DNA from: Planctomycetota bacterium | GTDB taxonomy: Bacteria; Planctomycetota; Planctomycetia; Pirellulales; Thermoguttaceae | DNA: 58,479 nt | NCBI GenBank assembly: GCA_037147235.1 | Contig: JBAWVO010000001.1 | Coordinates: 1-58,479, forward strand | Direction: 5' to 3' | Part shown: positions 4,975 through 57,257 of the stretch, piece by piece | How positions within the stretch are numbered: position 1 is the first letter of the stretch | Layout of the letters: each line of letters starts with the position of its first letter | The notes under the pieces: generated by a model | Told to the model about the DNA's origin: nothing | Database searches by the model: none | Seen by the model: only the letters and a program-made list of their open reading frames with translations | Program-made: the position numbers and the translations under genes

Positions 4975-5159
4975 GGTGTATTAGCTTAGGGTAAGTTGCC
5001 AAAATCGGCAAGCCGGAGTAGAGAAATTGTCTCTTCCGGGAGCAGATGATATAATGGGCAGTAATCGAAACAACCTTGCGCGATTCTGGGCGGTGCCCGA
5101 CAGCGCACAAGCCTTTGGCTTCCGGCGAACGGCACACGGGGTGTGCTGCTACTTTGACT

Positions 5160-7404: not shown

Positions 7405-8853
7405 ATGACGACTGCTACCAGCACGATTCAAGAACTGGCCAATCGCGAATACAAGGACGGCTTCTATACCGACATTGAGGCCGACATGCTGCCGCGCGGC
7501 CTGAACGAAGAAATCGTTCGCGCCATCTCCGCCAAAAAAGACGAGCCGGACTTCCTGCTCGAATGGCGTTTGAAGGCCTATCGGCACTGGCTGACCATGA
7601 CCGAGCCGAAATGGCCCAACGTGCATTATCCGCCGATCAACTTCCAGGAGATCATTTACTACTCGGCGCCCAAGCCGAAGAAGAAGCTCGGCAGCATGGA
7701 GGAGGTCGATCCCGAGCTGCGGGCGACCTTCGAGAAACTGGGTATCTCGCTGGCCGAACAGCAGCGATTGAGCGGTGTCGCCGTGGACGCGGTCTTCGAC
7801 AGCGTCTCGGTGGCCACTACCTTCAAGGAGAAGCTGGGCGAGCTGGGCATTATCTTCTGCTCTTTCTCCGAGGCGGTGCAAAAACATCCCGAGCTGATCA
7901 AGAAGCACCTGGGTTCGGTCGTGCCCGCCAAAGATAACTTCTACGCAGCCCTGAACGCAGCGGTCTTCAGCGACGGGTCCTTCTGCTACATCCCCAAGGG
8001 GGTGCGCTGCCCCATGGAGCTGTCCACCTACTTCCGCATCAATTCCGCGGAGACCGGCCAGTTCGAGCGGACGCTGATCGTCGCCGAGGAAGGCGCCTAT
8101 GTCAGCTACCTCGAAGGTTGCACGGCCCCCATGCGCGACACCAATCAATTGCACGCCGCCGTCGTCGAGTTGGTCGCCGTCGGTGAAAACTCGCAGATCA
8201 AGTACTCGACGGTGCAGAACTGGTATCCTGGCGACAAGGAGGGCAAGGGCGGCATCTACAATTTCGTCACCAAACGCGGTGCTTGCCGGGGCTGGAACTC
8301 GAAGATCTCCTGGACCCAGGTCGAGACCGGTTCGGCCATCACCTGGAAGTATCCGAGCGTCATCCTCCAGGGCGACGATTCAGTCGGTGAGTTTTACTCA
8401 GTGGCTCTGACCAACCACTTCCAGCAAGCCGACACCGGCACCAAAATGATCCACATCGGCAAGAACACAAGCAGCACGATCGTGTCGAAGGGCATCTCGG
8501 CCGGCCACGGCCAGAACAGCTACCGCGGCCAGGTGAAGGTCATGAAGGGTGCGGAAAACGCCCGCAACTACTCGCAGTGCGACTCGCTCTTGCTCGGCGA
8601 CCGCTGCGGCGCGCACACCTTCCCCTACCTGGAAGTGCGCAACACCAGCGCCCAGGTCGAGCACGAAGCCTCGACCTCGAAGATCGGCGAGGACCAGATA
8701 TTCTACTGCAAGCAGCGCGGCATCTCGGCCGAAGACGCCGTCAACATGATCGTCAACGGCTTCTGCCGGGAAGTCTTCCGCGAGCTGCCCATGGAGTTCG
8801 CCGTCGAGGCCCAGAAGTTGCTGGGCGTGAGCCTGGAGGGAAGCGTGGGATGA
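7405..8853 (+). CDS. sufB: Fe-S cluster assembly protein SufB
   Basis: [25 protein letters not shown]..., plus the typical SufB core ([48 protein letters not shown]). The track start at 7354 would translate the repeat tract. Confidence 0.95.
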
Positions 8854-13291: not shown

Positions 13292-13352
13292 GATTCACCG
13301 CGAGAGAGTACAAAGAGCGCAAGAGAAAGATTTTGTTCTTTCGCGGTGAATT
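13292..13352. repeat. Interspersed repeat family 'REP2', copy A (hairpin form)
   Basis: gattcaccgcgagagagtacaaagagcgcaagagaaagattttgttctttcgcggtgaatt. The 11-bp arms attcaccgcga and tcgcggtgaat are inverted repeats. It resembles 50968-51022. Confidence 0.6.
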
Positions 13353-16032: not shown

Positions 16033-17400
16033 TTATCGCACGATGCAGCGGAAGCGGAAGACGCCGCCCTTGCCGGGCGACAGCGGCTCGCTGAGTACGC
16101 AACGCACGATCAGCGACTCGCCCTCGTTGGGCTGCGTGGAGAACTGGGCCTTCAGGCTGCACTGAGCACTGTCGGGCACATACTCCAGCCGCGTCGTCAG
16201 GCTGTCGACAATCTGCACACTGCCGATAGGCTGATTGCCCACGTTGTCGAAGCGGATCGTGAACGAGACCTCGTCGCCCGGCTCGGCGACCGGCGTGGAT
16301 GCGACCTTGACGACCCGCAGCTTCGGATTGGGCGCCGAGCCAATCCCGAAGGTCTCTTGCGGTTTCTGACTGACCACCGTGGCACCGGCAGTCTGATGAT
16401 CCAGATAAATCTGCACGGCCTGCTTGTGGCTCCAAGCAACGGCCGCCTGCGTACCCTTGGCCAGGATCGGTTCCTCGTGGCCGACATAAACACCGGTGCG
16501 GATAACTGCCAGGTTCTCGTAGACGCGATAGAAGTTGTCGAATGCCTTGGGCCGCAGCTCGGCCAAGAGCGTGGCGTGTGATTTGCGACTGCGGAGCTGT
16601 AGGGCCGGGTTGGTGCCGATGTCGCGGACAGCCTGTAGGTTCTGCCTGTTCAGCCCCACCGGTTCGCTCGTGCGGGGGCCGAGGGGCTTGACCGGCTCGA
16701 CCACGCCCGTAGCGCGATTCCGCTGCTGGTTGATCTCCACGTCAACGATCTGCCGCACGGCGTGGAATCGCGGGCTGTAGAGGCTTACCTTGTTGCTTGG
16801 TTCGACCACGGTGCGGCCGTCAAGCGTGCTATAACGGGCGACGGTGTCTTCCATTTCAAGGCCCAACAGCTCGCCCTTGGGGCCAACGCGGATCGGCGGA
16901 CCGGCATTGCCGCCATCGTGAAGGTATTCGTCAGCCGGCCAGGGCGGAATGATTCCCGGCGGCGTCCAGGGACCGGCGGCCGTGTAGGCCAGGGGAACGC
17001 CGAGTTCCATACCCGGAGGACCGATGGGACATGGTGCCCCCGGCGGCAAGGCGGCATATCCACCTTGCGCGGTTTTGGGGACGGACTTGGAAGTCCATCC
17101 TACGGGTGTGGTTTTGTCGACGGACTCGGAGGTCCATCCTACGGGTGTGGCCGTACTTTGCGGCAAGGCTTGGTTGGGTGAATGCGAAGCCGGGCTGCGG
17201 CATGAGCAGAGAATCAGCGTGCCCAGCACAATGATCGCAAGCCGCCAGGCGCGAATCGATCCTTGGTTGCTTAGGATCGGCGAATCAATAACTGCCGTAT
17301 TTTGCGCACTCGCTGAGCGGGGGGAGGACGGCACACGGAGTGTGCCTGCTACTTTTCTTGCGACACTTATTGATTCGCCGTTGCTTGTCGTTTGATTCAT
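16033..17400 (-). CDS. DUF11 (conserved repeat domain) surface protein with a repeat-derived N-terminus
   Basis: The C-terminus, PGDEVSFTIRFDNVGNQPIGSVQIVDSLTTRLEYVPDS, is DUF11-like. A signal/lipobox-like segment (WRLAIIVLGTLILCSC) follows about 50 element-derived residues. The start ATG overlaps the upstream stop (ATGA at 17397-17400). Confidence 0.8.
   Translation of the reverse strand: MNQTTSNGESISVARKVAGTLRVPSSPRSASAQNTAVIDSPILSNQGSIRAWRLAIIVLGTLILCSCRSPASHSPNQALPQSTATPVGWTSESVDKTTPVGWTSKSVPKTAQGGYAALPPGAPCPIGPPGMELGVPLAYTAAGPWTPPGIIPPWPADEYLHDGGNAGPPIRVGPKGELLGLEMEDTVARYSTLDGRTVVEPSNKVSLYSPRFHAVRQIVDVEINQQRNRATGVVEPVKPLGPRTSEPVGLNRQNLQAVRDIGTNPALQLRSRKSHATLLAELRPKAFDNFYRVYENLAVIRTGVYVGHEEPILAKGTQAAVAWSHKQAVQIYLDHQTAGATVVSQKPQETFGIGSAPNPKLRVVKVASTPVAEPGDEVSFTIRFDNVGNQPIGSVQIVDSLTTRLEYVPDSAQCSLKAQFSTQPNEGESLIVRCVLSEPLSPGKGGVFRFRCIVR
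17072..17149. repeat. 2 x 39-bp tandem repeat with a palindromic core, inside the DUF11 gene
   Basis: gttttggggacggacttggaagtccatcctacgggtgtg is followed by gttttgtcgacggactcggaggtccatcctacgggtgtg. These encode TPVGWTSKSVPKT and TPVGWTSESVDKT. The core GGACGGACTTGGAAGTCCATCC is a palindrome. Confidence 0.85.
17269..17380. mobile_element. MITE/RPE-like palindromic element, copy 1 (inside DUF11 gene codons ~8-45)
   Basis: Terminal inverted repeats are ggcgaatcaataa (17279-17291) and ttattgattcgcc (17367-17379). The central hairpin is GGCACACGGAGTGTGCC. It aligns with 30719-30807 and, inverted, with 48591-48699. Confidence 0.7.
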
Positions 17401-18203
17401 GGCTGCGGCTTCTTTTCCGCGGGTGGGGCCGGTCGGGCCTGTGCGGTCTCACGGATCGGTTTGGCTTGTGCTGCCGTGCGCGGTGGATAGGCCACCCAGG
17501 GCGGCGAGCCAAAGTAGAAGTTAGTATCCTGTCCCTGGTCCGGTACACGGCCGCCCATGCGAACAATCGCCACGGGCCGGCCCAGTTCGTCGGCCACCGC
17601 CAAGGGGTCGCGGCCCGTTGCGACTTCAAACCACGACTGGCCGTTCTCGCCGCGAGTCGGCAAGACGTTGTGGGGATCTTCCAGGTAAATCACCCGCGTC
17701 ACAAACTTGCCTTGCATGGCCAACTCGATGTCTTCCTGAGCAAGCTCTATGGGAATCGCGAAACGAACCTGCTGATCCGTGGGGGCATAGGTCCGATCGA
17801 TAATCTCGATCGTGGGAAAGATTTCCATCCCTTGGGCCTGCGGAAGAGGAATATTCGTCACGCGAAGCCGATAGACCGAGCCGATCAGCAGCCCAACGCG
17901 GCGAGGTGCCTCTTGCGGTGCGCCAAATTGATTTTCCACAGCCAGCGAGATCGAGACCCCGGTGGGAGCCTTGATCTCGACTGGCTGGAAAAAACCCGCC
18001 AAGGGTCCGCCCCGCTGGAGCTGCCGGCTTCCAATCGCTCCCGGTGGCATCACGCCCTGATGCCAGTAGTGAATCGCCGGCTCCTGGGCCAAGCCGTGGA
18101 CGGCCAGGCAGAGGAACACAAGCAATACACCACCCAGTTTGCCGGCAACTCGGCTTCCCTGATTTCGCATTCGAGTTATCAAGTAGCGGAGCTTAGGGAC
18201 CAT
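17397..18203 (-). CDS. Secreted hypothetical protein, paralog of the 18291-19310 product
   Basis: 268 aa with signal-like GGVLLVFLCLAVHGLAQ. The shared block is YRLRVTNIP...MEIFPTIEI...IPIELAQEDIELAMQGKFVTRVIYLEDP. In the paralog it reads YRLKLANIP...LELFPTLEV...[28 protein letters not shown]. Confidence 0.75.
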   Translation of the reverse strand: MVPKLRYLITRMRNQGSRVAGKLGGVLLVFLCLAVHGLAQEPAIHYWHQGVMPPGAIGSRQLQRGGPLAGFFQPVEIKAPTGVSISLAVENQFGAPQEAPRRVGLLIGSVYRLRVTNIPLPQAQGMEIFPTIEIIDRTYAPTDQQVRFAIPIELAQEDIELAMQGKFVTRVIYLEDPHNVLPTRGENGQSWFEVATGRDPLAVADELGRPVAIVRMGGRVPDQGQDTNFYFGSPPWVAYPPRTAAQAKPIRETAQARPAPPAEKKPQP

Positions 18204-19512: not shown

Positions 19513-20619
19513 ATGACAAACAAGTTGCCTATTCTACTTGCCTTAGTTCTCATGGTCGCCGCCGCAATGCCGTGGCTGCGATCGTTGGAGCCGCAGCGAT
19601 GGATTTTGTCCGGCGATAGTACGACGGTGCCACCCCCCGAGCGAGTCGCCACGCAGTCAATTTCATCCGGCAGTACGCAAAGCGTTGAAAAAGCTAGAGA
19701 TACGTCGTTTTTGCAACCGTTGATTCCGTCGGCGGTAGCTCCGATTCCGCAGGCCACGCAGGGTCAAATAAGTTCCAAGATTTCAGCGACGGATAGCGGA
19801 GTGCCTCGGGCTGTCGATATATCCCAATCTACCCTGCCTAAACCTCAGGCACTGTTGGAAAGTGCAGTTCAGGCCGTGGAAACCAGACGTTTTATTTCCG
19901 CGCGCATCAAGCAGCAAGGCGAATTGTTCGGTCAGCAGATTACCGGAGAGGGCCGCTACTACGAGCTTCGCCAGGGACCGATTCCACGGATCCATCTCGA
20001 ATTGACGGTGGAAGTTGGGTCGGTTTCTACCAGTCTCGTGCAGGTTTGCAATGGCACGACCTTTTGGACCTATCGGAAGCTGCCCAACGCGGAATCGTTG
20101 TCCAAGCTCGACGCAGTGCGTGCGATTACCGCACTGGAGCAGGCTGCAAGCAAGCTGCCGCGAGAAGCGATCGCCTCCTCGCCTGGATTAGGAGGTCTGG
20201 TGCGATTGATCCGCGGGCTAAACGCCCAGTTCGAGTTCACCTCGGTCGTCGCCGATCAACTAGGCGGCCTGCCGGTCTGGAAACTCAGCGGCGGATGGAA
20301 GCCGGCGCAACTGGTCCGACTTCTGCCGAACCAGAAGGAGGCGATCGAAAAGAGCCGTCCGCTAGACTTGACTCGTCTGCCGGGCCACTTGCCTGACGGC
20401 GTGTCGCTGTTCCTTGGGCAGGAAGACTGCTTTCCTTACCGCATTGATTACCTCCGTAGCGCGCCAAAGTCGTCGCCGCGGCGTTTGGTGGGGCTGGAAT
20501 TCTTTGAGCTGAACTTCAACGGGCCGATTGACTCCGGCCAATTCCTCTTCACGCCGGGCAGCCTGGAGATCATCGACCGCACCGAAGAGTTTGTCCGCTC
20601 GCTCGGCGTGGGGGGGTGA
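19513..20619 (+). CDS. Secreted hypothetical protein (possibly LolA-like fold)
   Basis: 368 aa with signal MTNKLPILLALVLMVAAAMPW. The fold suggestion rests only on the general sequence pattern and is weak. Confidence 0.65.
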   Translation: MTNKLPILLALVLMVAAAMPWLRSLEPQRWILSGDSTTVPPPERVATQSISSGSTQSVEKARDTSFLQPLIPSAVAPIPQATQGQISSKISATDSGVPRAVDISQSTLPKPQALLESAVQAVETRRFISARIKQQGELFGQQITGEGRYYELRQGPIPRIHLELTVEVGSVSTSLVQVCNGTTFWTYRKLPNAESLSKLDAVRAITALEQAASKLPREAIASSPGLGGLVRLIRGLNAQFEFTSVVADQLGGLPVWKLSGGWKPAQLVRLLPNQKEAIEKSRPLDLTRLPGHLPDGVSLFLGQEDCFPYRIDYLRSAPKSSPRRLVGLEFFELNFNGPIDSGQFLFTPGSLEIIDRTEEFVRSLGVGG

Positions 20620-22559: not shown

Positions 22560-25295
22560 TTAATTTGCAAAATGTTTGCTGACTTCCGCGTGGAGCAGGG
22601 CAGGATCCAGTAGCAACATCGGCTCGAGCCAATCGACGTGGTTGCCAATATCCAGTCCATCGCCTCCACCAGAAACCTCGCTGGAGTTTTCCGTGACGAG
22701 TACGAGTTGCCGGGCGGTGCCCGCCGCAGGTGGCAGGGCGATTTCGCCCGTCGAGACCGGCATCCTCGAACCGACCAGCGGCTGACTCTGATACAGCGGT
22801 GTACCGTTTGCCTGATTGATATAGACCTTGGCGATTGCACAGCCCGCATTGCCGACGACCGCATCGATGCCCACACTGGCGCGGAACGCCCTCACGCAGT
22901 CCGGCAATGCGAAAACCATTTCATTCGGGGCGTGAACGCCGAACCCCCATAGGTAATCCATGCCCTCACTGCGCAAAATGCCGCCGGCCACGTTACGGTC
23001 GGTCTGCCACTTCCAACTCGGTCCTAGCGATCCACGCTGAGTGACCTGTTGCGGAGCAAATCGCGACAGCGGTATCCTGTGCGCGGGTGCCTGCCAAAGA
23101 AGGCGAAGACGAGCCCATGGCACAGGAATTGGATCATGGCTCCAGACCGGCTGCATCCATCGCAGCGACGCTTCGAGTACGCGATCACGTCGCAGTTTCG
23201 CTGGATCAGCCCCTCGCTCATGAGGCCGATGCAGCAACGATGAGGCCCCGGAAGACGATCGGTTCGTGGAAGCCGTGATCACCATCCCCTCGGCGGTTTC
23301 CACTCGCACGATTTCCGCACTACCCTCGGGATCGAGGATCGACAGCTCGCGAAAGTAGGTGTCCCAAGCATCCATTGGTGACAATTGTAGGTCGGCTATT
23401 TCAATCAGGGGGATGCGCTCAAGGCTTTCCTCCGTAAGCACGCTCACGGAATCCGCTCCCCAGCGAACCGCCCGGAAAGCGTAACGGCGGCCGTTGCGAC
23501 AGGTCAGCGTCTTTGGCAGGCAGGGCCGGTCTCGCAAGGACGGGTCAAAGATAATCCGGCGCAACCAATCCGTGTCCACGGAGACCGTTTGCTTTGGATC
23601 TTGAAGAAAACCGATGGGTGGCCGAACGATCAATTGCGAGGATACCGCTTGGTTTTCCTTAGTCGAGGCTGGCACATAGCCGCAGATCGTTCCCACCATC
23701 CGGTCGCCGTTCTGAAATTCCAGCATCGCTTCGGCAGGGGCCATGGGCTGGCGATCGGACTCGGCGCAGCGGCGGTCGAACTGGACGCAAACCCGTGTGG
23801 GCATTGCGGCCGGATCGGGACGCGACACCTTCCCGGAAGGCCCTATCCACCGCCAACCTGTCAACAAGCTACCGTCGAGCCGCAAACCGTTTTCATAGAC
23901 GGCCGTAAGGCGCGACTCGCCACCCATGCGGCGGATGCGCTGAGCCAGGGCGCAGATGTTCTCGACGGCTTCCGGTGTGGTGGCGGTCGGGCTGACGAGC
24001 ATGGCATCGCAATCCTTGCCACCAGGCCCTTCCCCACGGATCACGATCTCGGCAGGCCCTGACTTGAGTTCGATCTGGCCGGCCTCACGCCACACGACGA
24101 CGGCATCAGGCCCGCGGGCATGGGTCACTCGCAACTCTTTACCCTGGACGGATGTTTTCAACGCAGAATTGCCAGGCCCGCGAACCTTTACGCTGTTTTC
24201 CAAGGCTCGCACCCAAACATGATACGTGCCGTTGCGGGGCACATTGATTGTGGTCCTGATCCCTTCGTCGGCGGGTTCACCCTCGGCCGTGACGTGCCGG
24301 TCTCCGAGGTATCGCCCCGCCTCGGCAGGGATATGGGCCGGCAAGCATCGCCAGTTTCCCTCGAAGTTTTCGGCCTGAAGAATGAAAGTACCCGTGGGAA
24401 GAATGGCATCGGTCATATCGAATTCGTAGCGGTGGCGAAGGTAAGCCAGCATGTCACGTCGTTCGGCAAACGAAAGGCTGCGGTTATAGACGATCATCTC
24501 GGCAATTTGGCCGCAAAACAATTCTCCTTCATGGCCCCCAAGCTCCAAGGTGCGGCCACATCGGTCGCTTTCCGGCTTCAACAGGCCAAGCAACGCCACC
24601 GCGCGATCTCCTCCCACCAGGTTGCTTAAACCGTCATGGAATTCCACCGTATGGCGATCGACCTCGCCGTTGGAAATGATCGCGGCAAAGCGTCCTTCGC
24701 CGCGACCATCGCTGGGCAATGTCAAGTCAAGGCTGTAGGCCCGTTCGCCGCGATTGGTGAGATAGCAGACATGCACCCTCGCGAATCCGTCGCCGCGACT
24801 GTGGAGGGCCAATGTTTCTCGCTTGTTCTGGCCGGTGCCCACGGAATACGGGTGGTTGCTCGATGGGCCGTTCCCCATCTGCGACTGAACGACGAGCACC
24901 ACCGTCGAGGTGGCGCGGTCATTCAACATGGCGTTGGATCGCGACAGAGCTTGCTCGCCGTTGAAGGCAACCGTGGGCCGATTGCCCGCCGCAGGCTGTC
25001 GAGCGACAAACAGCGGTGCTCGCTGGGGCACTGCCGCGAGATTAAATTTATTGGACGAGCGATCGTTCCACGCGGCCACCATGCCGTTGAAGTCCGGATC
25101 GGCGGGGCTGCGGCCCTGAGTATCCTTGATGCCGCTGTCGGCCCGCAGCCAAAGCCGCAGATTTTCGCCATTTGGGTCCGGTTCGCCGCTGGAAAGCATG
25201 ACCGTCGCCGCTGTGACGTGTTGAGAGAACACTACCGCAACCAACGTGGCAGCAAGGAATGTCAGGTGAATTGGAAATTGTTTGAGTACGGTCAT
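22560..25295 (-). CDS. Secreted LamG-like / central jelly-roll-like / C-terminal NPCBM-like protein (paralog B)
   Basis: 911 aa. The N-terminus has [13 protein letters not shown]...VAAWNDRS...[10 protein letters not shown]...[30 protein letters not shown] (LamG_3 style). The C-terminus has [29 protein letters not shown]...LVLVTE...GNHVDWLEP (NPCBM pattern). The start overlaps the upstream stop (ATGA at 25292-25295). Confidence 0.85.
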
Positions 25296-27937
25296 GGTAG
25301 GTCGCCCTCGAGAGCCGGACCAGTGGACTGCATCGTCGAAATACGCGTATTGTTGCCAGCCTGTTTCGCTCCTATCTTATTGCCGCTACCTTGGCAGCAC
25401 AATACCTGTTCGCCGCTGACGAGGATCGGCCCCAACGTCACCGCCGAGGCCGGGTTTGTGGAGGGGAATAAACTATGAGCCTTGGTTTTTCCCGAGGCTG
25501 CGTCGATCCAGAGCAGCGCGAGCCGCGATTTGTCCCCTTGCATGACCTGGCAGGCACAAAGAATTTGGCCGGCTGCGTTCCGGGCTAGGGCGGCGTCCAT
25601 GCCTGGCAATTCACGCCGCCAAAGTACCTGCCCCGTCGCAGCATGCAAAGCCGTAAGCCCATAGGTGCTTTGAACCAGGAGCCGATCGTCGTGGAGGTCG
25701 AGGATCTGTTGTAGGCCGATGACGCCCCGCCGCCAAACGAGTTGCCCCGTTCGCGCCGCGAGACATTCGACGGCGCAACTGCCTGGTTGCTGCAAGTAGA
25801 GGAGGCCGCCGGCCTCGCGAGGCAACTGGCAGGGCTGAGAATGGGAAACCGGGTCGATCTCCGCGGGGATCGCGATGCTATTTCGCATCCACTGCACCTT
25901 TCCCTGGAGATCGAGACAGAACACGGCCCCGGAGAACAACACGACCAGTCGATTGCCGACGCAGATCGATTGATACTCGGGCGGCCTGTCCAATGCCGCC
26001 AACCGGTTCGGGGTACGAGATACTTCCGCGAAACCACGCCGGGAAAGCACTTCGCCGCTTTCCGCATCCAATTCCACCAGATACAAGGGAGAGGAAAACT
26101 TTCGGCCCGAATCCGTCGGCGCACCGAGCGTCAAGACAACCAGTCGGCCCTGAATCAACTGAGGATCGCCCGCCACATTGTCACCGCAATCGCGTCGCCA
26201 TAGCCCGCGCCCGGTCTTCTTGTCGAGGCAAACGATTCCATATCTGCCCGAGACGGTTGTCGTTCGGAGGAAGATCCGCGGACCTTGCACCAGCGGGCGT
26301 ATTGGGCTGGACAACACCGACTTGCCTAGCTCCCAACTCCACCGCCTCTTGCCGCTGGCGGACTCGATCGCAATGGCCTGCTTGCGATTACTCACGATCA
26401 GAAGGTCGTCGTGGGCGACCACCGCGATGTTGCCCGACAACGCATCGCAAGAACCGCTCTCGTCGGGTTGCCCCAACGTCGCGAAACAAAACTGCACGGG
26501 CTGCGGAGCGGGAAGGATCGGAAAGGTATCCACAAGCGAGGCCGTCTCCGTCTTCGCCTGCCGGGCAACCGCATCGCGGACCCGTCGCTCAAATTGCTCT
26601 GGAGAGAGGCGGGTTTCGCCAAAGGAAACGGGCTGCTTGGGAGGCTCGCCTCGCAAGTTGCCGAGCATGGCCGAGGCCAGACGGACGCGGGCCGCGAGGT
26701 CGGGCTGCCGATCAGGTGAGGCCGTCGGACGGCCTTCTTCGTACCAGGAAAGGGCTTGGGTAAAGTCGGCTCCCGCCAGCGCGCGGTCGCCCAACCATTG
26801 ACATGCCGAGGCGTGAGCCGGAGTGCCATAGTATTGGACGGTCAACGCCTCGACCGCCATCGGATCACCTTGCGACAGCGTCTGCAGGATGCCGAGCAGT
26901 GCGGCACCGTCGAGTTGGCCGCTCATCACCTCGGCAAGCTCGCGCCGATGAAGCAATATCAGTTGCATGCTGCGGTAGGACACAAAAAGCTGCTCGTCTC
27001 CCGGCGTTGCCATCAAGCCTTCAGCGCGCAAGGCGTAGCTGTTCGTCAGCAGCCGCGCTGCCTCCCGGTACTGCTTATCTTCCAAGGCCGCCCGCAAGTT
27101 CTGGAACAGGCCCGATGCTCCCCGGCTCACGGGCACAATCAGCGGCTGGCGAAGGTCGGCCGTAGGGACGGAGTTCTTGGCCGACCGACCCAAAGTCCGA
27201 TCATACATCCAAGCAAACAACTGCGGGTTGTCCACCGAGCGACGGGCCGGCGGTTGATTGGGTTGCTTCTTGAGTTGCTTCTTGGACTGCTTCGGCTTCG
27301 CATTGACCGGCACTTGACGGGTCGATGGTTGTTTCAGTTGCTTCTCGAAACGCTGCATTTCCTCCCATCGCTGTTCCGCGTACAGCAATCGTAGTACCTC
27401 ATTGACCAAAGACGGCGACAACGGACCGCCGTCGGTCAAAGTCTCCATGCGGGCCTTCTGATACTCCTGGAACTCGGCCTCGGTACCCGTTTCGAGTACG
27501 GCACGGCCAAGCTGTTCCCATGCCTCGATCGAATCGTTGGGATCGAACTGAACATCCGCGACAGCCGCCTTGCGACGTAACTCGGCCGACACGGTGTTGA
27601 CCGTGCCATTCAATTTATCCGCCGGTTTTTCCGCCGGTTTTTCGATTGGCTTTTCGATTGGTTTCTCCGCTGGTTTCTCCGCTGGCTTCTCGATTGGTTT
27701 CTCGGCTGGTTTGTTAGCCATCTTCTCGGTTGGTTTCTCGGCTGGCATTTCGTTAGGTTTCTCGCCAGAATCCTCGACCTGTATCTCGGCAGAACTTTCG
27801 GTCGATGTTTCAGCAACCGTTTCGGCAGGCTTCTCACCAACGCGGGACGTCATGGTTATGGCCAGTAACATCGAAAGGCCAAGGCCGACCAGCACCAAAC
27901 CGGCCCAAATAATCCATCTTCGAGGGAGTTTTATCAT
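25292..27937 (-). CDS. Membrane-anchored PQQ-like (BamB-type) beta-propeller repeat protein with a (KPxE)n spacer
   Basis: I prefer the start [24 protein letters not shown] (ATG at 27937, overlapping the upstream stop as ATGA). It has 12 x 12-bp repeats encoding [10 protein letters not shown]... The C-terminal half carries repeated motifs: ...[13 protein letters not shown], ...[12 protein letters not shown], ...[12 protein letters not shown], ...[12 protein letters not shown] and ...[12 protein letters not shown]. Confidence 0.8.
27618..27761. repeat. 12 x 12-bp imperfect tandem repeat (coding, KP[AI]E periodicity)
   Basis: Units include tccgccggtttt, tccgccggtttt, tcgattggcttt, tcgattggtttc, tccgctggtttc and tccgctggcttc. 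Read directly from the sequence. Confidence 0.85.
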
Positions 27938-30573
27938 TTCGATCCTTTGATAACTTTCGCGTGAAGCAGGACAGGATCCAGTAACAATGTCGGCTCGAGC
28001 CAATCGACGTGGTTGCCAATATCGAGTTCATCCCCTTTGCCGGAAGCCTCGTGGGCGTTTTCCGTAACGAGGATGAGCTGCCGGGCAGCACCTGTCCCGG
28101 GTGGCAAGGCGATTTCACCTGTCGAGACCGTCATGGCCGAGCCGACCAGCGGTTTGCTCTGATAGAGCGGCACGCCGCTCACCTGATCGGCATGGATCTT
28201 GGCGATCGCGCAGCCTGCGTTGCGGACCACCGCATCAATGCCCACGCTGGTACGGAAGGCCCGCACGCAGTCCGGCAGCGTGAAAACCATTTCGTTGGGG
28301 GCGTGAACGCCGAACCCCCATAGGAATTCCATGCCATCGCTGCGCAGGATGCCGCCCGCCACGTTGCGATCGACCTGCCACTTCCAACTGCTGCCCAGCA
28401 CTCCGCGCTGGGTGACCCGCTGCGGAGCGAATCGCGATAGTGGCACGACGTAAGACGGTGCCCGCCAAAGGAGACGCGTGCTGATCCAGGAGACGGGGAT
28501 CGGCGCGCGGCTCCAGGCTGGCTGTAACAGGTGGGCCAGCGCCACGGGATCATTGGGAGCAGCCAAGTGCGACGACCGGATCGTGGAGGCCGTCAGTACC
28601 ATTCCTTCGTTGGCCTCCACGCGAATAATTCCTGCCTTCCCCTCGGGATCGAGGATCGCCAGTTCGCGATAGTACCCATCCCAGGCGTCGTCGGTCGCCA
28701 TTCGCACTTCCGCCACTTCGCTCAGGGGGATCTGTTCGAGGCTTTCTTCGGTCAGCACACTCACCGATTCCGCGCACCAACGGATCGCGCGGAAAGAGTA
28801 GGCGCGACCATTGCGGTGGATCAGTGTCTTCGGCGGGCAAGGCCGGTCGCGCGGCGATGGCTCAAAGACGATTCGCCGCAGCCAATCGATTTCCACGGGA
28901 ATCGCAGATTGGGGAAACCCGGCCGGCATCCGGACAAGCAACTGCGCGGACACCGACGGGCCTGGCTGGGAGGTCGCGGGCACGTAGCCACAGATCGTAC
29001 CCCGCAGCCGGTCGCCGTTCTGGAATTCCAGCATGGCTTCGGCAGCGGCCGTCGACGGACGCTCGGGCACGGCTTGGCGGCGGTCGAACTGGAGGCATAC
29101 CAGCGGAGGCAATGTGGCTGGATCGGGACGCGATACCTGCCCGGAAGGCCCCGTCCATCGCCAACCCGTCAACAGGCTGCCGTCAAGTCGCAAACCGTTT
29201 TCAAAGACGGCCGTAAGGCGCGACTCGCCTCCCATTCCGCGGAGACGTTTGGCCAACGCGCAGAGTTCCTCGACCGCGTCCAATGTTGCGGCCGTCGGGC
29301 TGATAAGCACACTATCGCAATCCTTGCCGCCAGGTCCTTCGCCACGGATTACAATCTCGGCGGGCCCCGCCTTCAACTCGACCTCTCCGGCCTCGCGCCA
29401 GGTCAGGGTGGTCGCAGGACCGCGAACATGAGTGACCCGCAATTCCTTACCTTGAACAATCGTTTTCAACGCTGAACTGTTAGACACCGGGGATCGGAAG
29501 TCGTTTTCCAAGGCTCGCACCCAGATGTGATACAGGCCATTACGGGGTACGTTGATCGTGGTCTTGATTCCTTCGTCGGTCGTCTTGACGTCCGCCGTAA
29601 GGTGCTGGTCACGCAAATAGCGTCCAGGTTGTGTACGGGACCAGGTCCAGTTCCCCTCAAAGCTGTCGGCCGGCAATAGGAACGTGCCCGCGGGAAACAG
29701 CCCGTCGGTCATGTCGAGTTCATAGCGGTGGCGGAGGTAATTCAGCATTTCGCGGCGTTCGGCGGATGAGAGGCCACGATTGAAGACGATCATCTCGGCG
29801 ACTTGGCCGCAGAAGAAATCGGCTTCGCCACCCCCGAGAAAAAAGTCGCGGCTGCACTTGTCGCTTGCCAGCGGCCCGACAAATTGGTTGCGCTCCCCGC
29901 CCATCAGGTAGCTCGTACCGTCGTGGAACTCCAGCGTGCGGCGATCGCTCTCACCGTTGGAGAGGATAATGGCAAAGCGGCCTCCGGCACGACCATCGCT
30001 GGGCAATGCCAAATTGAGGTCGTACCCCCGTTCGCCGGCACTGGTCATATAAACCCCTCCCAACCCCGCCCATCCAGCATCGGGATAGTTCAGGTTCAAG
30101 GTTTCTCGCGTGTGCTGGTTCCTTCCCGTGGAGAAGAGGTGGCTGTTCCGCGGCTGCCCCTGAACGACGAGAATCATGGTCGAAGTAGGACGGTCATGCA
30201 ACACGGAACTGGAACGCGTCAGGATTTGCTCGCCACTAAAGGCCACCGTGGGCCGATTGCCTGCCGCAGGCTGCTGCTGAACGAAGAGTGGTGCCCGCCC
30301 GGGCGCAGCCGCCAGGTTGAACTTCTGCGGCGAGCGATCGTTCCACGCGGCGACCATGCCGTTAAAGCCTGGATCGGCCGGACTGCGTCCCTCCGTGTCC
30401 TTGATGCCACTATCGGCCCGCACCCAAAGCCGCAACTCCGGACAATTCGGGTCCGGTTCGCCGCTGGGAAGCATCGGGGGTGCCGCAGGGGCGAACCGAG
30501 CCGGCACCGTTGCAAACAGTAGGGCCGCAAGGATTACTAATCTTTGAGTTGGAAATGGTTTGGTCACGATCAT
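27934..30573 (-). CDS. Secreted LamG-like / central jelly-roll-like / C-terminal NPCBM-like protein (paralog A)
   Basis: 879 aa, collinear with 22560-25295 and sharing long identical runs (e.g. [49 protein letters not shown]). The C-terminus is NPCBM-like: [29 protein letters not shown]...GNHVDWLEP. Confidence 0.85.
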
Positions 30574-30640: not shown

Positions 30641-30718
30641 TCGGCCATAACTCCGTCAAGCAAACACACTAACCACCAACAGGTGGCGTTCAATTCACGC
30701 ACACTAAGGACTGGAGCA

Positions 30719-30807
30719 CCAATAACTGTCGTGTTTTGCATTCGCCGAGCGGGGGCAGACGGCACACGGAGTTTCTTGCGACACTTATTGATGCGCCGAT
30801 TCTAAGC
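30719..30807. mobile_element. MITE/RPE-like element, copy 2 (13-nt deletion of one hairpin arm), overlapping the giant-gene stop codon
   Basis: aataactgtcgtgttttgcattcgccgagcgggggcagacggcacacggag[13 nt missing]tttcttgcgacacttattgatgcgccgattctaagc aligns with copy 1. The TAG stop (30802-30804, minus strand) lies within the terminal repeat gcttagaatcgg. Confidence 0.65.
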
Positions 30808-33800
30808 TACCATCCGCCGCCTCCAGAGGTGTGCAACCAGCAAGCCAATGCCGGTCAACATGGCGATCAGCCCGACAACCGGCAGCATGCCGCCGCAAAG
30901 TGCTATCAATCCAGCGATGGCCAGCAGCGCGGCCCCTGCGGGACGGCGGAACCAAGCCAGGGCACCGCGGCGGATCAGCCAGGAGGCGGCCCAAATCAGC
31001 AGGCATGCCGCCGCGATGCCGGCAAGCAATCCCAGCTTGGCGAGCATGTGGTTACTGATGGTGCGGGCAGTTAGCTCGGCCTCGCCGCGCGGGGTTGTAA
31101 AGCGGTGGAGTTCATAAAGACTCTTGTCCGTGGGCAATTCAAAATCGAGGCTTGCTAGGCCTGCGGGAGCCGTGGGCGCGGCAGGTGCCGCCGTCGCATG
31201 GCCGGGATTGACCGCCCACTCCTGCTTCCGCGATTCCTCCGTCATGGTACTTCCAGAAGGGTAACCGGAGGGTGGGACAACGGGAGCTGACGCTGGGCTT
31301 GTGGACATGCCCATGCCCATGCCCATGACCGCGCCGCCTGAAGGCTGATTCGCCCTGTCGACGCTTTGTGCTTGGGGCTGATTGAGATTGTTGGCCACCG
31401 ACAACTTTTGCTGATACTCCCCCAATTCACGCTTCTGATCGTCGCGAGTACCGGAACGGCGACCGTATAGCTGTTGTCCAGGGGACTGCGCATTGGGCAT
31501 CTGCGGTTGTGCCTGCTCTTGCATCTTGCCTGCCTGTGCGCCTCCGCCACTGGCACCACCACCGCCAAAGCCGCCACGGGAGTTTGAAAAGGGATTCGCG
31601 TTGCCAAAGTTTCCCTGCCCGCCAAATTGCTCCGCGGTGTTGAGATTGATCCGACCGTTCGCCAAATTCGGATTGGCGGTTTGTAGTACCCCGCCGTTGA
31701 AGACCGTCTGGCCGCTGTACGTGTTGGCTCTGGAAAGTGTGAGGTTGCCGGCACCTTGCTTGACTAAACCGGTTTGCATGCCCGGCGGGAAATACTGCGC
31801 GTCGTCCTGTTGCGAGTACGGGCTTGTTGGTTTGCCGCCCGTGGGAGGTTCATTGGCTTGACTGGGTTGCTGAGCCACCGCCACATCGTTATTTAGGTTG
31901 TTTCGCGTAATCCAGTTTCCATTGAAGTCCGTGGAATTCTGCACGGCAAGTGCGCCTGCGTTAAGCGCGCCTGCGTTGATGGTCGTTCCGCCGCTGTAGG
32001 AATTGTTACCCGCGAGATTCAGCGAACCTTTGGCGTTGACGACATCCTGCTTTTGGTAGAGATCGTTGAGCCGCTCGCGGTTGTCGACCGTGGTTTCGTC
32101 TCCTTGCTGCTCGCCGCCGGGCGATGACTTGAGGAGATCTTTGGCCTGCTGGGCCGTGCTGGAGTTTGCGCTGAGCTGGCTTTGCAGGGCTTGGTTGCCA
32201 ACGCGGCCGGTCACATCCTGGCTCTTTTCGGCCTCGGTGACCCAGTTTTTCAGGTTCTCGGCGGCGCGGACGCGGGTGAATGGATCCTTGTCGTGAGTTG
32301 CCTCGATGAGCCGCTGTCCCTGCTTATTGAAGGCGGCCAACCGGCCAGCCTTCAGATCGGCTTCGTCGGCGGTCGGATGCATGGTTCCGTCGAAGGCGAA
32401 CCATTGGTGCGACTTGGGAACGTAAATCTCCAGTTGGCTCTGCTCGATGCCGATATTGCCCTGCCGCCCCAACTCGGACGTACGCCCCGATTTCACATTG
32501 CGAACCAGGGGGAACTGCATGCTGGACATGACCGAAAGCGGTGGCATCTTGCCGCCATACTTCAGCACGACGAGGTAGTTTAGATCCCCTTTGGCCGTCT
32601 TTCGCACCGGCAACAGCACATGGCGGGCATCCTTGGCACCCGGCACCTGGCCCGGCTTGACCGGTTCACCGGCGACATGCACGGTCCAGAGCGTCGCGCC
32701 TTCAGGGAGTTCGACATCAAGGAACTGTTCGGATGAATTATCGAGACTCAGTTCCACCTTTGCGCGATAGGCGCCGTTGGCATCGACCACGATCGTGGTC
32801 TGGGCCAGATCGATCCGTGCCCCAGACGTTTCCACTTCTTCGTGCCTTTGCAGATGGAAGCTCAACCGCGGCTGCACGGCACCGGGCTGAAGAAGATAGG
32901 CTTGGTACAAGCGTTTGGTGCCCAGCAGTTCGCTCAAAGTCTGCCACTGCTGCTGCTGCCGGCTGAGAACTTCCAACCCGTTGAGCGGCTCGACGACCAA
33001 CTCATCGCGGTTGGTGGTTTGCAACACGGCGTATTGATGCCGCACGAAGCCGGTCGTTCCGCCGGCAGCCGCTTGAAAACTAGGCAGCGGAGCCAAGTGC
33101 GAGCCGGGCGTCAGCAGCCGGTCGTTCTCGACCAGCACCCGCAGATCGTTCATTGCGTCGCCTTGCAGTTCGATCTGTACGCGCAAGGGACTGTCCGCGG
33201 CCTTGGGATCGACAGGCGCGACCGTCTTTCGCCGCAGCATGGGCGTGGAGATCCGCGCGTCGGCCATCGAGGCCGGCAACAGGAAGGAAAGCTCGTGAAT
33301 ACCTGCGTTGCGAATGTTGTAGTTGAGAAAAATCGTTTCTTCGATCGCACGATCGGTGATGCGAATGTTTGTGATCGTATCGCAGACCACCTCCGGCGTG
33401 CGCGGCACCAATCGCAGCTTGCCGGCATATCCGCCGCTTGCGTAGTGCAAGGCTAGGCGAGTGGCGGCCCGCAACTGCGGATCGAGCCAGGCGGCTACCC
33501 GCTGCAACTCGGTTTCCTGGCAGTCGCGCAGGTCGCGGGCCTGGACATTGAAGGCTGGGTCGGCCTGCACGGCAATGTAGCCCTCCTGCCGCTTGACCCC
33601 CAGCACCTCCAGTCGCGGTAATGAAATCTCTTGCTGGGCGTCCAATGCTTGGTGCGGCGGGCTAAAGCCCGCCCTACGGGCGAGCTTGCCACGCAAGATC
33701 ACCGCTGAATCGCCCAGGGCACCCTGCTGCAATTGAATTTTCAGGATGCTTCGCCCCTCACTCAAAGGAAGTGAAGGAACGCCTTTTTGCGGCTCCTGTT

Positions 33801-36800
33801 TTTCGATCGACCATATTCCGGGCGACGGAAGCGTTACTTCCGGCAGGCGGAGATCGTTGGGCAAGGCCACCTCGAAGCGATAAATTCTTCGCTGGCCGAC
33901 GTGGAAGGTAATCTTGCTCTCCAGGCTCGGCTCGGTCGGATCGAGTTTAACACTCGTCTGGGCCTCGGCAGTTACCTCGGCGACGGTGGGCGCAACACTC
34001 AGCCGGAGAACAAAGGGCGTCGTTGGAAAGTGATAAGCCTCGTAAGGCCGAATCGCCAACACGCTTTCCTCGGTCGCGGGGCCGCCGCTCAAATCGGGTA
34101 GCACCCCGAGATCGACGCGAGTCACCCCGGATCGCTCCGTGGTACGGACATCCAAGAGCGAGCTGCGACGAATCGTGAGCTGCCCGCTAGAAAGTGCAGC
34201 GTCGCGGACCGTAACCATGGGCACGGCGAACGTGTCCAGCGGTGCATGACCCACCTTGCCGCTTCGCGAAAGGAAAAGGTTGAACTGCTCGGTATCCTTG
34301 GCCGTTTTAAGCAGGCTGACTTCGATGGTTTGTTCGTTGGCCACCCGCCGAACCTCCCAGCCGCGGACGTTGCTTCCAACCACTTTCTCCACAAGGTAGT
34401 CGGCAGGCAGCGACAGCGTAAAGGCATCGCGCTGTCCGCGGCGGAATTCCAGCTTAATGTGCAAGGCCATGCGGAGGCCGTCTTCCTGGACATCCAGCAG
34501 GCTGGCAGTCTGCACGGTCAGGCCGCGATCGACCTGGGCTTCCGCCACCTTCGGACGCCACTGCAATTGCAGCGCCCCGCCAGGCCCGAGTGCCGTCTCC
34601 AGGTTTTCGTCGGGCCGCTGCGTATCATGGATGCGGCGATCGATGGCCTGGCCCAAGCGAACCTCGGTCTGAGGTTGGGGCACTCGGAAAGTGACCATCG
34701 CGGCTGGGGCCGTGGGGAGCGATCCGCTGGTGCCACGCCATCCGCCGACATGCCCCAGCTTGAGGCGGACTTCCAGCTCTAGTTTGTGGGTTCCCTTGCC
34801 GGAAACTTGCAGCACCAGAAGCGTTGCATCCATCGCCGCAGCCTTGCCTCCCTTACTCGGTTTGGCAGACTCAGAGGCGGCAGCGACGACCTTCAGTCGG
34901 GCCGGCTTGCCGTCCAGATCGGCTCGGGCCAACACGCCGCCGCGCAGACCGAGGGGAATGGAGATGTAGCCCTCGGCCAGTACGTTGATTTGCATCTGCC
35001 CGGTAAGGTTCAGCGTTTCCTCGCCTTCGAGCACCGCGCTGTAGGCCACGCCCGACAGGGTGTAGGGCAGAGGAGCCGGATGGGCATCGATCTTCTTGTC
35101 GGGATAGGCCTGGTTCCAAAGCTCGACGTAGCGATCGTAGGGAACCATGAGATGATCCGCGTCTTGGAGGCCCGTCTTCGATTTCACGTCGTAGGGCACG
35201 ATGATCGCATCGCTGGGCACGGCAACCGGCGGCTCCAGGGCCGCGGGTTGCGGCTGGGCCTGAGCGGTTGCCGAGAGCAACAGGGTCAGGGCCAGAACGA
35301 GTGCCGTTGTGACCGCAGTCGGGCTACCGATCCGGCCCGCGAGGCCACGGAGACCTTGGAGGAACCAGCGAACAAGACCCGCAGCCAAGTAATACGGCAC
35401 CAGCAGGCTAGCGGCGTAGAAGACCCCGTTGCAGAGATTCGCCATGCTCACGGTGTCCCAAGCTAACGGTATCAGCGCGGCGGCCAGCGCAAGGCCGAGC
35501 ACCAACGCCGCCTTCTGCCGCACGGGTCGCCTGGTCAGGGCCACGCCCAGCACGAACACGGCCAAGGCCACACCCCAGACCAGGGCCTCGGTACGAGTGC
35601 GGCGGGCCAGCGTAATACCGATTTGCGGATTGGCCCCCAGGCTGCTAAAACTGAGGAGTTGCTCGTCCATCCCGGATTGTTCCACGTCGATCTTCAGACT
35701 GCGAACGCCGAGAAACTTGTCTTGTTTGTAGGTCGGTTTGGAAATCGAGTAGCTGGACTCGCCCCAGCCGCCCTGGGGCACTTTGCCTGACTCGGGCTTC
35801 GCATCGGGTGGCGGAATAATGCTGACCACGTCAGGAGTTGCGGGATACGCCGCAGGCGCGGGTATGAAAGCGTCGTTCCCGAAAGGATCGTCCCTGTCGG
35901 CAGCAGGTCCGCGAGGCGCCGCGGGTGCAGGAGACGCTTCAGTTGCGGGCGGCGGCGGTGCGGATATGTCCGCTTTAGGGGCCTCGTCAAGAGTCGGTGC
36001 TTGAGGCAGATGTAATACCTTTTCCTTGTCAACATTTGGCGGAGGAATGTCCCGGACCGCGTCTTTCTTTTCCTCTCCGTCGCGTCCTTCGGGTTTACCG
36101 CCTTCGCCATTCTGGGCAGCCGCCTTTTCCTCATCTGCCTCCCCTCGATAGAACCCTGGCTTGCGGTGTGACACGTCAGGCTTGGGAGTCGCGACTGTAG
36201 TCGATGCCATTCCGAACTGGCGGAGCTCATTCTTACAACTCGCCGACTTCGCTTCCCCTCCCATCATCACGAATGAGGACGAATGAACCCCACCACCCAG
36301 CACATAGAGCGCACCCGCCACCGCCATCGGAGCGGGCATAGGCCGCTTGATCTGCTTGGCCTCCAAAGTACCGTCGGTGGCCACGACATCGTAGCCGTCA
36401 GGCACCGTGACCGTCCACTCGATATTTACCAGGGGAATCTCGGTCGATTGCTTCGCTGCCTGGCTGGTGCGGTAGAGCAACCGCGGTGCGGTGAGGTTCA
36501 ACCGCCCGCCGTTGGTCACGGCTTGCACAGGCACTTCATAGACGAGTTGCAAACTCCGCGCCGCGCCGGTCGAGCCGGGCGGAAGGCCGATCAGACGAAT
36601 CCCGCCTCGCTTCTGCGGCTTCAGCGGCGCACCGTCCAGTACGGCCGACCAGAGCGACGCCTTTTCCGGCAATTCGACTTCCAGATAGGGGGCCTTGGTG
36701 CGAAGTTGGAATGTGGCCTGGGTCTGGCTCGTGCCATCCGCCGAGAGCAGGGTCGTGAGCTTGGCTTGCTGGACAATCGCCGGCGTTAGCGCGTAACTTG

Positions 36801-50967: not shown

Positions 50968-51022
50968 GAATTCACCGCGAAAGACCGCAAAGTGCGCAAT
51001 AGAAAGAAGGTTTGTTTCTTTG
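50968..51022. repeat. Repeat family 'REP2', copy B
   Basis: gaattcaccgcgaaagaccgcaaagtgcgcaatagaaagaaggtttgtttctttg aligns with 13292-13345, sharing ATTCACCGCGA.AGA...CAAAG.GCGCAA.AGAAAGA..TTGTT.CTTT. Confidence 0.55.
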
Positions 51023-54689: not shown

Positions 54690-54802
54690 ACTCGCACTAC
54701 GCCGAAACTTATGCAACAATAACGACAAAGAGTAGAGAGTAGGATGGACTTCCAAGTCCGTCCTAAACTCGCACTACGCCGAAACTTATGCAACAATAAC
54801 GA
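54690..54802. repeat. 36-bp perfect direct repeat flanking a 41-bp insert that carries a palindromic hairpin
   Basis: actcgcactacgccgaaacttatgcaacaataacga occurs at 54690-54725 and at 54767-54802. The insert contains AGGATGGACTTCCAAGTCCGTCCT (54741-54764), the same palindrome family as 17080-17100. Confidence 0.85.
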
Positions 54803-56779: not shown

Positions 56780-57151
56780 ATGCTGAAAAAAGCTTTGATT
56801 GTCGGCGTTATTCTGGGAGCCATCGTGCTTTCGAGTTCCCCGGCTCAAGCCGGAGGGCCCCATATCGGAATTGGGATTGGGATCGGCGTACCCGTCTATC
56901 GTCCTTATCCGCACTATTACGGATACCCATACCCTTACTATCCGCGCCCGGTGTATGTCGTCCAGCAGCCGGTTTATGTGACGCCGCAGGGGGTGCCCGT
57001 TTACCAGCAATCGGCTCCGGTCCCACAGCAGTACTACTATGCGCCGTCGTATCCGGCAGGTTCGGCACCGACCTATGCGGCACCAGGTTCGCCCCCGCCG
57101 CTGCCGGTGCCACCTCCCCCTGCTCCTGCCCCGGCAGGAACGGAATTCTAA
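56780..57151 (+). CDS. Secreted Pro/Tyr-rich low-complexity protein
   Basis: AAGGAGA lies 8-9 nt upstream of the ATG at 56780. The signal is MLKKALIVGVILGAIVLSSSPAQA, followed by GIGIGIG and YPYPYYPRP-type low complexity. Confidence 0.6.
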   Translation: MLKKALIVGVILGAIVLSSSPAQAGGPHIGIGIGIGVPVYRPYPHYYGYPYPYYPRPVYVVQQPVYVTPQGVPVYQQSAPVPQQYYYAPSYPAGSAPTYAAPGSPPPLPVPPPPAPAPAGTEF

Positions 57152-57166
57152 GAGGCTATCCGAAAA

Positions 57167-57192
57167 CTCCCCTCTCCCTTCGGGAGAGGGGC
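57167..57192 (+). terminator. GC-rich hairpin (REP-like), possible terminator
   Basis: cccctctcc - cttcg - ggagagggg. There is no clear T-tract, so it may be a REP element rather than an intrinsic terminator. Confidence 0.4.
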
Positions 57193-57257
57193 AGGGGGGG
57201 AGAGCTTTTCGCTGAGTAACGTGGCGAACTGCTGTCTTGCCGGTTCGCCCAGGACGA

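Follow-up and report, generated by a model that had tools for sequence, protein, structure and literature searches.

A probable ISAzo13-type miniature transposable element lying in frame in two genes of a Planctomycetota bacterium

Several bacterial miniature inverted-repeat transposable elements (MITEs) share their ends with an insertion sequence (IS), as do Nezha and ISNpu3 in Anabaena/Nostoc; Correia in Neisseria and RUP in pneumococcus are further examples (PMC3184786). Families of GTAG-tagged repetitive extragenic palindromes (REPs), together with many genes for REP-associated tyrosine transposases (RAYTs), were reported in the planctomycete R. baltica by Di Nocera et al. 2013 (PMC3733652). 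Dimers of REPs that lie within genes and encode 20-30 aa are known in several phyla, and the GTAG-15 dimers of Anabaena sit in a longer palindrome that begins TATAGGA (PMC3733652). A cognate IS, target-site duplications (TSDs), filled and empty sites and in-frame genic copies have been established for other MITEs, REPs and Rickettsia palindromic elements (RPEs) (PMC3184786, PMC3733652). Here we analysed a stretch of 58,479 nucleotides (contig JBAWVO010000001.1 of assembly GCA_037147235.1, hereafter the window) from a Planctomycetota bacterium assigned to the Thermoguttaceae. The window holds three copies (c1, c2 and c3) of a palindromic element, two of which lie in frame in genes, one in a DUF11-like gene and one in mnmE. 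A first-pass annotation of this DNA had proposed a mobile, MITE- or RPE-like palindrome able to sit in frame in genes, and our analysis supports this. The element is very probably a non-autonomous DNA transposon, that is, a MITE with the ends of an ISAzo13-family IS.

Like the bacterial MITEs mentioned above, the element is about 100 bp long and non-coding, with IS-identical terminal repeats, a short TSD and a stable hairpin fold; filled and empty sites occur in close relatives, and it is occasionally fused to a host open reading frame (ORF). It differs from them in its Planctomycetota host (Thermoguttaceae-like metagenome-assembled genomes, MAGs), in its ISAzo13-family partner and in a REP-like interior hairpin that varies among lineages having the same terminal repeats. 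It shares with ISAzo13-family ISs the terminal repeats (the left end of c1 agrees with the IS end at 22 of 24 positions) and a 3-bp TSD, which is reported for this family and for Zator (PMC10045372), whereas the window element has no transposase gene. RPEs are likewise palindromes of about 100-150 bp that lie in frame in unrelated genes, at surface-permissive sites and in a stop-free frame. Unlike RPEs, which have no recognised ones, this element has a cognate transposase-encoding IS, terminal repeats and TSDs, and its other copies are mostly intergenic (about 65 of 72 without a long spanning ORF, among the matches listed). The RPE resemblance that had been proposed therefore stands for in-frame genic insertion absent from orthologues, but it is a functional likeness only; no sequence relationship was found in a comparison made with Rfam only. 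Homology to RPEs was not expected, because the hosts are Planctomycetes.

Terminal repeats, target-site duplications and a partner insertion sequence

All three copies that the first-pass annotation had listed were found, and their bounds were refined. The copies and their parts are as follows.

17274-17384 (111 bp), plus strand: copy c1, within the DUF11-like gene at its 5' end, with TTA (17271-17273) and TTG (17385-17387) on its two sides
17274-17297 and 17361-17384: terminal-repeat arms of c1, with one and three mismatches, respectively, from the terminal-repeat match
17330-17352, minus strand: GTAG-tagged REP-like hairpin of c1 (GTAG-CA-GGCACAC-TCC-GTGTGCC)
17305-17317: second, weaker internal hairpin of c1 in the predicted fold (GCACTC-G-CTGAGC region on the plus strand, GCUCA-GCG-AGUGC on the minus strand)
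30708-30802 (95 bp), plus strand: copy c2, intergenic, with both terminal repeats kept and TAA at 30705-30707 and 30803-30805
48597-48695 (99 bp), minus strand: copy c3, inside mnmE, with TAG flanks on either side
48616-48638, plus strand: GTAG-tagged REP-like hairpin of c3

Five terminal-repeat arms are present in the window: two in c1, two in c2 and one full arm in c3 (48671-48694), the REP-side terminal repeat of c3 being about 13 nt short. In c2, internal deletions of 13 bp and 2 bp have destroyed the REP hairpin. c1 and c3 show 89% complementarity across 103 nt, and the 17-nt core GGCACACGGAGTGTGCC gave no match in 100 dinucleotide-preserving shuffles. The central hairpin GGCACAC-N3-GTGTGCC of c1 is present as it had been described, with a GTAG tag, a 7-bp stem and a 3-nt loop. 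The perfect 13-bp inverted repeat described for the same copy is also present, but the canonical terminal repeat is longer, 24-28 bp. The element is small, lying below the limit of about 300 bp used for MITEs, and encodes nothing itself. Gene calls, which covered ~52 kb of the window, included no transposase gene; thus, the copies in the window are non-autonomous.

The element is not confined to the window. A core-pattern scan of one-genome-per-species contigs revealed at least 11 loci in at least 8 Planctomycetia, Planctomycetaceae or Pirellulaceae MAGs, and the end pattern GGAYCGGCGAANCAATAASTGTCG was found in at least 120 JGI metagenome contigs. A copy-number search, as the first-pass annotation had recommended, thus yields many further copies in other genomes and metagenomes. 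Metagenome contigs and the earlier MAG loci provided, among the matches listed, 77 complete end pairs with enough flank, to which the following counts refer. Canonical terminal inverted repeats of 24-28 bp, GGAYCGGCGAATCAATAASTGTCG, were present at both ends of all 77 copies, and 72 of the pairs span 87-187 bp, with modes at 98, 110 and 119-120 bp. The 3-bp flanks are identical direct repeats in 51 pairs, reverse-complementary in 3 and otherwise different in 23, and TTA or TAA accounts for about 59 of the 77 flanks on each side; the TSDs that had been suggested as a check are therefore found. The flanks of c2 and c3 in the window are identical and those of c1 are imperfect. Such a pattern is the signature of a cut-and-paste or copy-in DDE transposase that makes a 3-bp staggered cut in an A/T-rich target. 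Long ORFs span 7 of 72 other copies, and most of them were judged on inspection to be spurious, Arg/Pro/Gly-rich ORFs of G+C-rich DNA, so that true genic copies are rare. A full-length copy had no blastn match among PLSDB plasmids, nor did the terminal-repeat pattern match any IMG/VR viral contig. A search of the accessible literature found no description of this MITE, its exact core or any ISAzo13-derived Planctomycete MITE.

The same ends also occur 1351-1352 bp apart in four contigs, among the matches listed.

27-1378 of contig L026: full-length IS
362-1713 of contig L061: full-length IS
242-1592 of contig L046: full-length IS
14-1364 of contig L084: full-length IS

These four ISs fall into two lineages that are 87% identical to one another, and tblastn revealed a fifth full-length copy and two fragments. 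Their transposase belongs to the ISAzo13 family (Pfam PF07592, E = 4e-95; NCBIfam NF033519, E = 4e-105), and an N-terminal 98-aa ORF of the IS matches model positions 3-72. PF07592 is the 'Rhodopirellula transposase DDE domain', and the ISAzo13 family is related to the eukaryotic Zator. The cognate transposase that the first-pass annotation had suggested looking for is thus encoded by an ISAzo13-family IS with matching terminal repeats. The interiors of MITE and IS are unrelated save for ~10-15 nt adjoining the terminal repeats. An IS5-family parent (TWA duplication and GGA...GCGAA ends) was also considered and was superseded by the ISAzo13 match. We also observed that the transposase frame of the IS shifts at a conserved A8 run, near position 362 in the coding strand of the IS. 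Because this run is conserved in two lineages that are only 87% identical, the frame change suggests programmed frameshifting or transcriptional slippage rather than decay.

A mechanism consistent with these data can be proposed. The terminal repeats would be the binding and cleavage sites for the ISAzo13-family DDE transposase; the interior is a short, non-coding sequence that contains a single GTAG-tagged REP-like hairpin or a pair of them. A full-length IS of 1.35 kb that has these ends would provide the transposase in trans. The enzyme would cut out or copy the element, which would then insert at a short A/T-rich target, usually TTA or TAA, and produce a 3-bp direct repeat. Most copies lie in intergenic DNA, c2 being such a copy, whereas c1 landed in the n-region of a signal peptide and c3 in a loop at the surface of the G domain of MnmE. 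The latter two may persist by virtue of an insert length that is a multiple of three and a stop-free frame, which would give a protein insert of 34-38 aa, probably disordered.

In-frame copies in the DUF11-like gene and mnmE

The two genic copies lie in the following genes.

16033-17400, minus strand: gene for a DUF11/CLIPPER-like predicted lipoprotein of 455 aa, host of c1; the source assemblies call the same start
47602-49080, plus strand: mnmE, encoding a tRNA-modification GTPase of 492 aa, host of c3

Judging from the reading frames, c1 would be translated on the minus strand as GESISVARKVAGTLRVPSSPRSASAQNTAVIDSPI and c3 on the plus strand as (R)ISVARKVAGTLRVPSDPRSASGQNTTVVDATIP; the predicted junction peptides of the inserts are …ETIQDRISVARK…, …VVDATIPSEPNLIVVLTK… and MNQTTSNGESISVARK…. 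Both peptides quoted in the first-pass annotation were correct, and the two copies are indeed read in the same element orientation and frame. This shared frame is unsurprising, as survivorship predicts, because only two of the six frames in c1 and four of the six in c3 are stop-free. A conserved protein domain had been named as the competing explanation for the shared segment. Orthologues of both host proteins lack the segment, indicating that the element is an insertion and not such a domain. If the empty alleles were instead precise deletions of an ancestral sequence, deeper-branching orthologues would be expected to have it throughout, which is not what the alignments show. Close relatives have empty sites for both genic copies, from which exact insert lengths of 102 bp (mnmE) and 114 bp (DUF11-like gene) are obtained. 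The canonical element of this subfamily is 110 bp, as in L071 and L135, where it is flanked by TTG/TTG and TAA/TAA, and its insertion would shift the frame, since 110 bp plus the TSD makes 113 bp. c1 has one extra G in a G run (111 + 3 = 114), and c3 has two extra nucleotides and is missing ~13 nt of one end (99 + 3 = 102). Thus, the inserts are in frame because small length changes relative to the 110-bp element make the totals multiples of three. We infer that selection favoured mutations restoring the frame once the element was in place, or else that the surviving insertions were solely aberrant ones that fitted the frame.

c1 is located within the first 130 nt of the ORF, between codon 7 and the hydrophobic core of the signal peptide, and all DUF11-like orthologues lack the 38 aa. 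The empty site, ATGAATCAAACGAC/AAGCAACCAAGG, was found in MAG GCA_025356915.1 and in a Logan contig (L019, L020), whose DUF11-like genes are 96-97% identical to the window gene; the latter has 114 bp more. On the plus strand, the 114-bp insert is also bordered by GTTGCTT as a direct repeat of 7 bp. Nevertheless, a 7-bp TSD for c1 (AAGCAAC) is a less probable reading than an ordinary insertion of 111 + 3 bp with two later end substitutions, since the overall length agrees with the standard model and the TSD of the family is 3 bp. These substitutions recreate the native N-terminal residues (MNQTTSN) and, together with the target, yield the 7-bp direct repeat; they may be due to selection, to a small conversion tract or to an insertion of an unusual kind. 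A second GTAG-tagged REP family, GTAG-GATGGACTT-CC-AAGTCCGTC, occurs at 17058-17135, inside the same gene, and at 54739-54763. In the gene, two tandem 39-bp units of this family are translated as TPVGWTSESVDK and TPVGWTSKSVPK. Since most orthologues lack these units, the DUF11-like gene holds REP-derived coding inserts besides the MITE.

In MnmE, c3 occupies the variable loop that separates G3 (DTAG) from G4 (TKCD). The segment is missing from the closest orthologue, P0002 (458 aa), whose gene (L015; 87% nucleotide identity) is shorter by exactly 102 bp, corresponding to 48594-48695, and TAG borders the insert on either side. An alignment of 17 MnmE orthologues revealed that the insert site is a loop of hypervariable length, varying by tens of residues, and the G1, G3, G4 and C-terminal CIGK motifs are intact in the window MnmE. 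In the AlphaFold2 model, residues 343-366, the element-coded stretch, have a predicted local distance difference test score (pLDDT) below 50 and lie between confidently modelled G-domain elements, and the insert is accordingly predicted to be disordered. Both host proteins have presumably retained their function. The Planctomycete MnmE proteins P0015, P0017, P0035, P0037, P0043 and P0085 have long low-complexity inserts of their own in several loops, including the G3-G4 loop. MnmE seems to be tolerant of insertions in general, and some of these other inserts may be repeat-derived as well.

Several points weigh against the element being an ISAzo13-type MITE that moved into these genes. The matching IS is seen in other metagenome contigs and not in the window or demonstrably in the same genome; therefore, current mobility in this organism is unproven. 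A clean TSD is missing in the 23 end pairs noted above, the flanks of c1, TTA and TTG, are not identical, and one terminal repeat of c1 is atypical, with two substitutions in its last 5 nt (GATCC to GTTGC). For both genic copies, secondary changes or an aberrant insertion have to be assumed if the standard model is to hold. Translation of the inserts is deduced from ORFs and gene calls only.

REP-like interiors and rival explanations

The central hairpin of the element can be read as a GTAG-tagged REP-like module. REPs, REP dimers and REP doublets forming hairpins (REPINs) are reportedly the subject of work by Bertels and Rainey in 2011. As in GTAG REPs and REP dimers, there is a GTAG tag, a G+C-rich stem of 6-9 bp and a 3-nt loop, and both singletons and head-to-head dimers occur; the nested architecture is the same as that of the Anabaena dimers in their TATAGGA... 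palindrome, which was left unexplained there (PMC3733652). The R. baltica REP peptides (SRIRQEF, RSVVLHR) differ from AGTLRVPS here (PMC3733652), and, unlike REPINs, the mobile unit is bounded by DDE-type terminal repeats with TSDs and not by REPs. At least six unrelated REP-like interiors were found within near-identical ends, nearly all of them GTAG- or GTAC-tagged perfect hairpins or head-to-head doublets. Besides the hairpin of c1, they include ATCACGC-TCC-GCGTGAT, CCTCACGC-TCC-GCGTGAGG, CGCACAC-TCC-GTGTGCG, GGTGACTTTAGTCGCCC and GACGGATT...AATCCGTCC. Because near-identical repeats hold unrelated interiors, it is the terminal repeats, and not the REP, that define the family. In 839 kb of DNA, 118 perfect GTA[GCT]-tagged hairpins were counted, with xGCACAC-TCC and xTCACGC-TCC stems dominating.

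An exhaustive HMMER search with the element-coded peptide found 15 proteins, most of which contain tandem KVAGTLRVPSA units from the REP core, and longer MITE-coded termini were present in two of the proteins, P0128 and P0134. KVAGTLRVPSA, TAHGVCLLL and RHTECACY are translations of the core that occur in tandem in small, probably spurious metagenome proteins. The hairpin also exists without MITE ends, in L006 and L012 and at one place in the window.

5124-5155, plus strand: solo REP-like module GGCGAACGGCACACGGGGTGTGCTGCTAC, lacking the terminal repeats of the MITE, whose last base is 6 nt upstream of an ATG at 5161

This solo hairpin is followed by TGCTACTTTGACT. By eye, TGCTACTTT resembles an extended -10 element, from which we speculate that a leaderless transcript might start. 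A sigma-54 promoter reading of GGCAC...GTGC was rejected, as the GG-to-GC spacing, again by eye, is 14 and not 12.

These interiors raise the question of whether the element is instead a REPIN or REP doublet moved by a RAYT, that is, by a tyrosine (HUH/Y1) transposase, its long inverted repeats being extended doublet arms. The interior hairpin has the textbook form with its 7-bp stem and 3-nt loop, head-to-head doublets of such hairpins are present in sister lineages (L004, L024 and L072), the hairpin is also found without terminal repeats, and GTAG REPs with many RAYT genes are documented in R. baltica (PMC3733652). In addition, IS200-like, RAYT-like Y1_Tnp genes lie 47 and ~70 bp from MITE copies in L027 (MITE 569-679, gene 726-1394) and L134 (MITE 8306-8424, gene 7417-8238), and these are the only two Y1_Tnp genes detected in the ~840 kb of fetched DNA. 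Both neighbouring MITEs hold a GTAC-tagged REP doublet; on the far side of the gene no REP was seen in L134, and the L027 contig ends there. However, the conserved, sharply bounded unit stops at the terminal repeats and not at the GTAG tags, its interiors are unrelated inside near-identical repeats, and the same repeats end an IS with a DDE transposase. Furthermore, 3-bp direct duplications flank the majority of the listed pairs, and HUH/Y1 transposition (IS200/IS605, RAYT) is not known to leave such duplications. Movement by a RAYT is thus improbable as the origin of the element, and we file it as an ISAzo13-type MITE with REP-like cargo because the conserved, TSD-flanked unit is delimited by DDE-type ends.

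It is more improbable still that the element is no mobile sequence at all but a duplicated module kept by host selection, such as a structured RNA, a terminator, a promoter or operator, or a protein motif. c1 folds well, with an outer stem formed from both ends and two inner hairpins (z = -5.8 for the minus and -3.6 for the plus strand); its hairpin is followed by TGCTACTTTT, which is loosely terminator-like or extended -10-like by eye only; and c2 comes directly after a stop codon, while the solo REP is close to a start codon. Yet the folds of c2 and c3 are less distinctive and on some strands no better than shuffles, and Rfam gave only a tRNA at the gathering threshold in the whole window and nothing at E ≤1 in 17200-17450. 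Near-identical genomes differ in the presence or absence of the element, its contexts are unrelated and include both orientations, orthologues of both host proteins do without the segment, and the TSDs together with the cognate IS explain its spread. It is possible that individual copies have a regulatory side effect, and the hairpin as a terminator or TGCTACTTT as an extended -10 promoter would be a side effect only. As for chance similarity or an assembly artefact, the sole point in its favour is that the window is a metagenome contig. The same contig region with the insert was assembled independently from three samples, the core motif found no chance match in the shuffles, and the MAGs and metagenome contigs described above hold many related copies, so such an explanation is hardly credible.

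A further idea concerns the MITE and the REPs together. The ISAzo13-type MITE shell may systematically carry the GTAG-REP hairpins of its host as exchangeable cargo, perhaps linked to RAYT-like genes. We raise this tentatively and consider it rather unlikely; it is prompted by the six or more REP-like interiors, by the position of both RAYT-like genes beside MITEs and by the nested architecture in Anabaena. If it is true, a DDE-transposon remnant and an HUH/RAYT-REP system would be coupled, with REPs preferentially invading the centre of the MITE or MITEs dispersing REPs.

Neighbouring features and significance

c2 is not translated; it lies immediately downstream of the TAG stop of a gene for 2842 aa (30802-39330).

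30802-30804, minus strand: TAG stop of the 2842-aa gene, to which the flanking repeat (TSD) contributes two bases and the MITE its terminal G

Paralogous stretches of ~2.6 kb, 22575-25165 and 27946-30440, are 72-80% identical and lie 5.3 kb apart. These seem to be paralogous genes arranged in tandem, and the 879-aa ORF 27934-30573 that adjoins c2 is one of them. Other repeats were observed in the window. The copy of the second REP family at 54739-54763 lies between perfect 36-bp direct repeats, 54690-54725 and 54767-54802. One contig assembled from two samples (L001 and L002, locus positions 19550-19660) differs by a 75-bp indel at about 57150-57205 of the window, adjoining a GAGGGGAG/CTCCCCTC-type inverted repeat that is also present at 37096-37135 and is possibly one more repeat of a mobile or unstable kind. 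In addition, a 38-bp repeat, ATTCACCGCGAGAGAGTACAAAGAGCGCAAGAGAAAGA, has two copies with 84% identity at 13293-13330 and 50970-51007.

The analysis does not overturn current understanding; it describes a known kind of event in a poorly studied group of bacteria. It names a probable mechanism, an ISAzo13-family MITE with a 3-bp TSD, for a repeat that litters Thermoguttaceae/Pirellulales-like genomes and that yields many spurious small ORFs and odd peptides, such as KVAGTLRVPSA, TAHGVCLLL and RHTECACY, in metagenome protein catalogues. It also flags a possible tie between DDE-type MITEs and REP/RAYT systems. Finally, c1 and c3 would be two clean, dated cases of a transposon remnant turned into part of a protein, one of them in the conserved GTPase MnmE, in which the changes that probably restored the frame are still visible.

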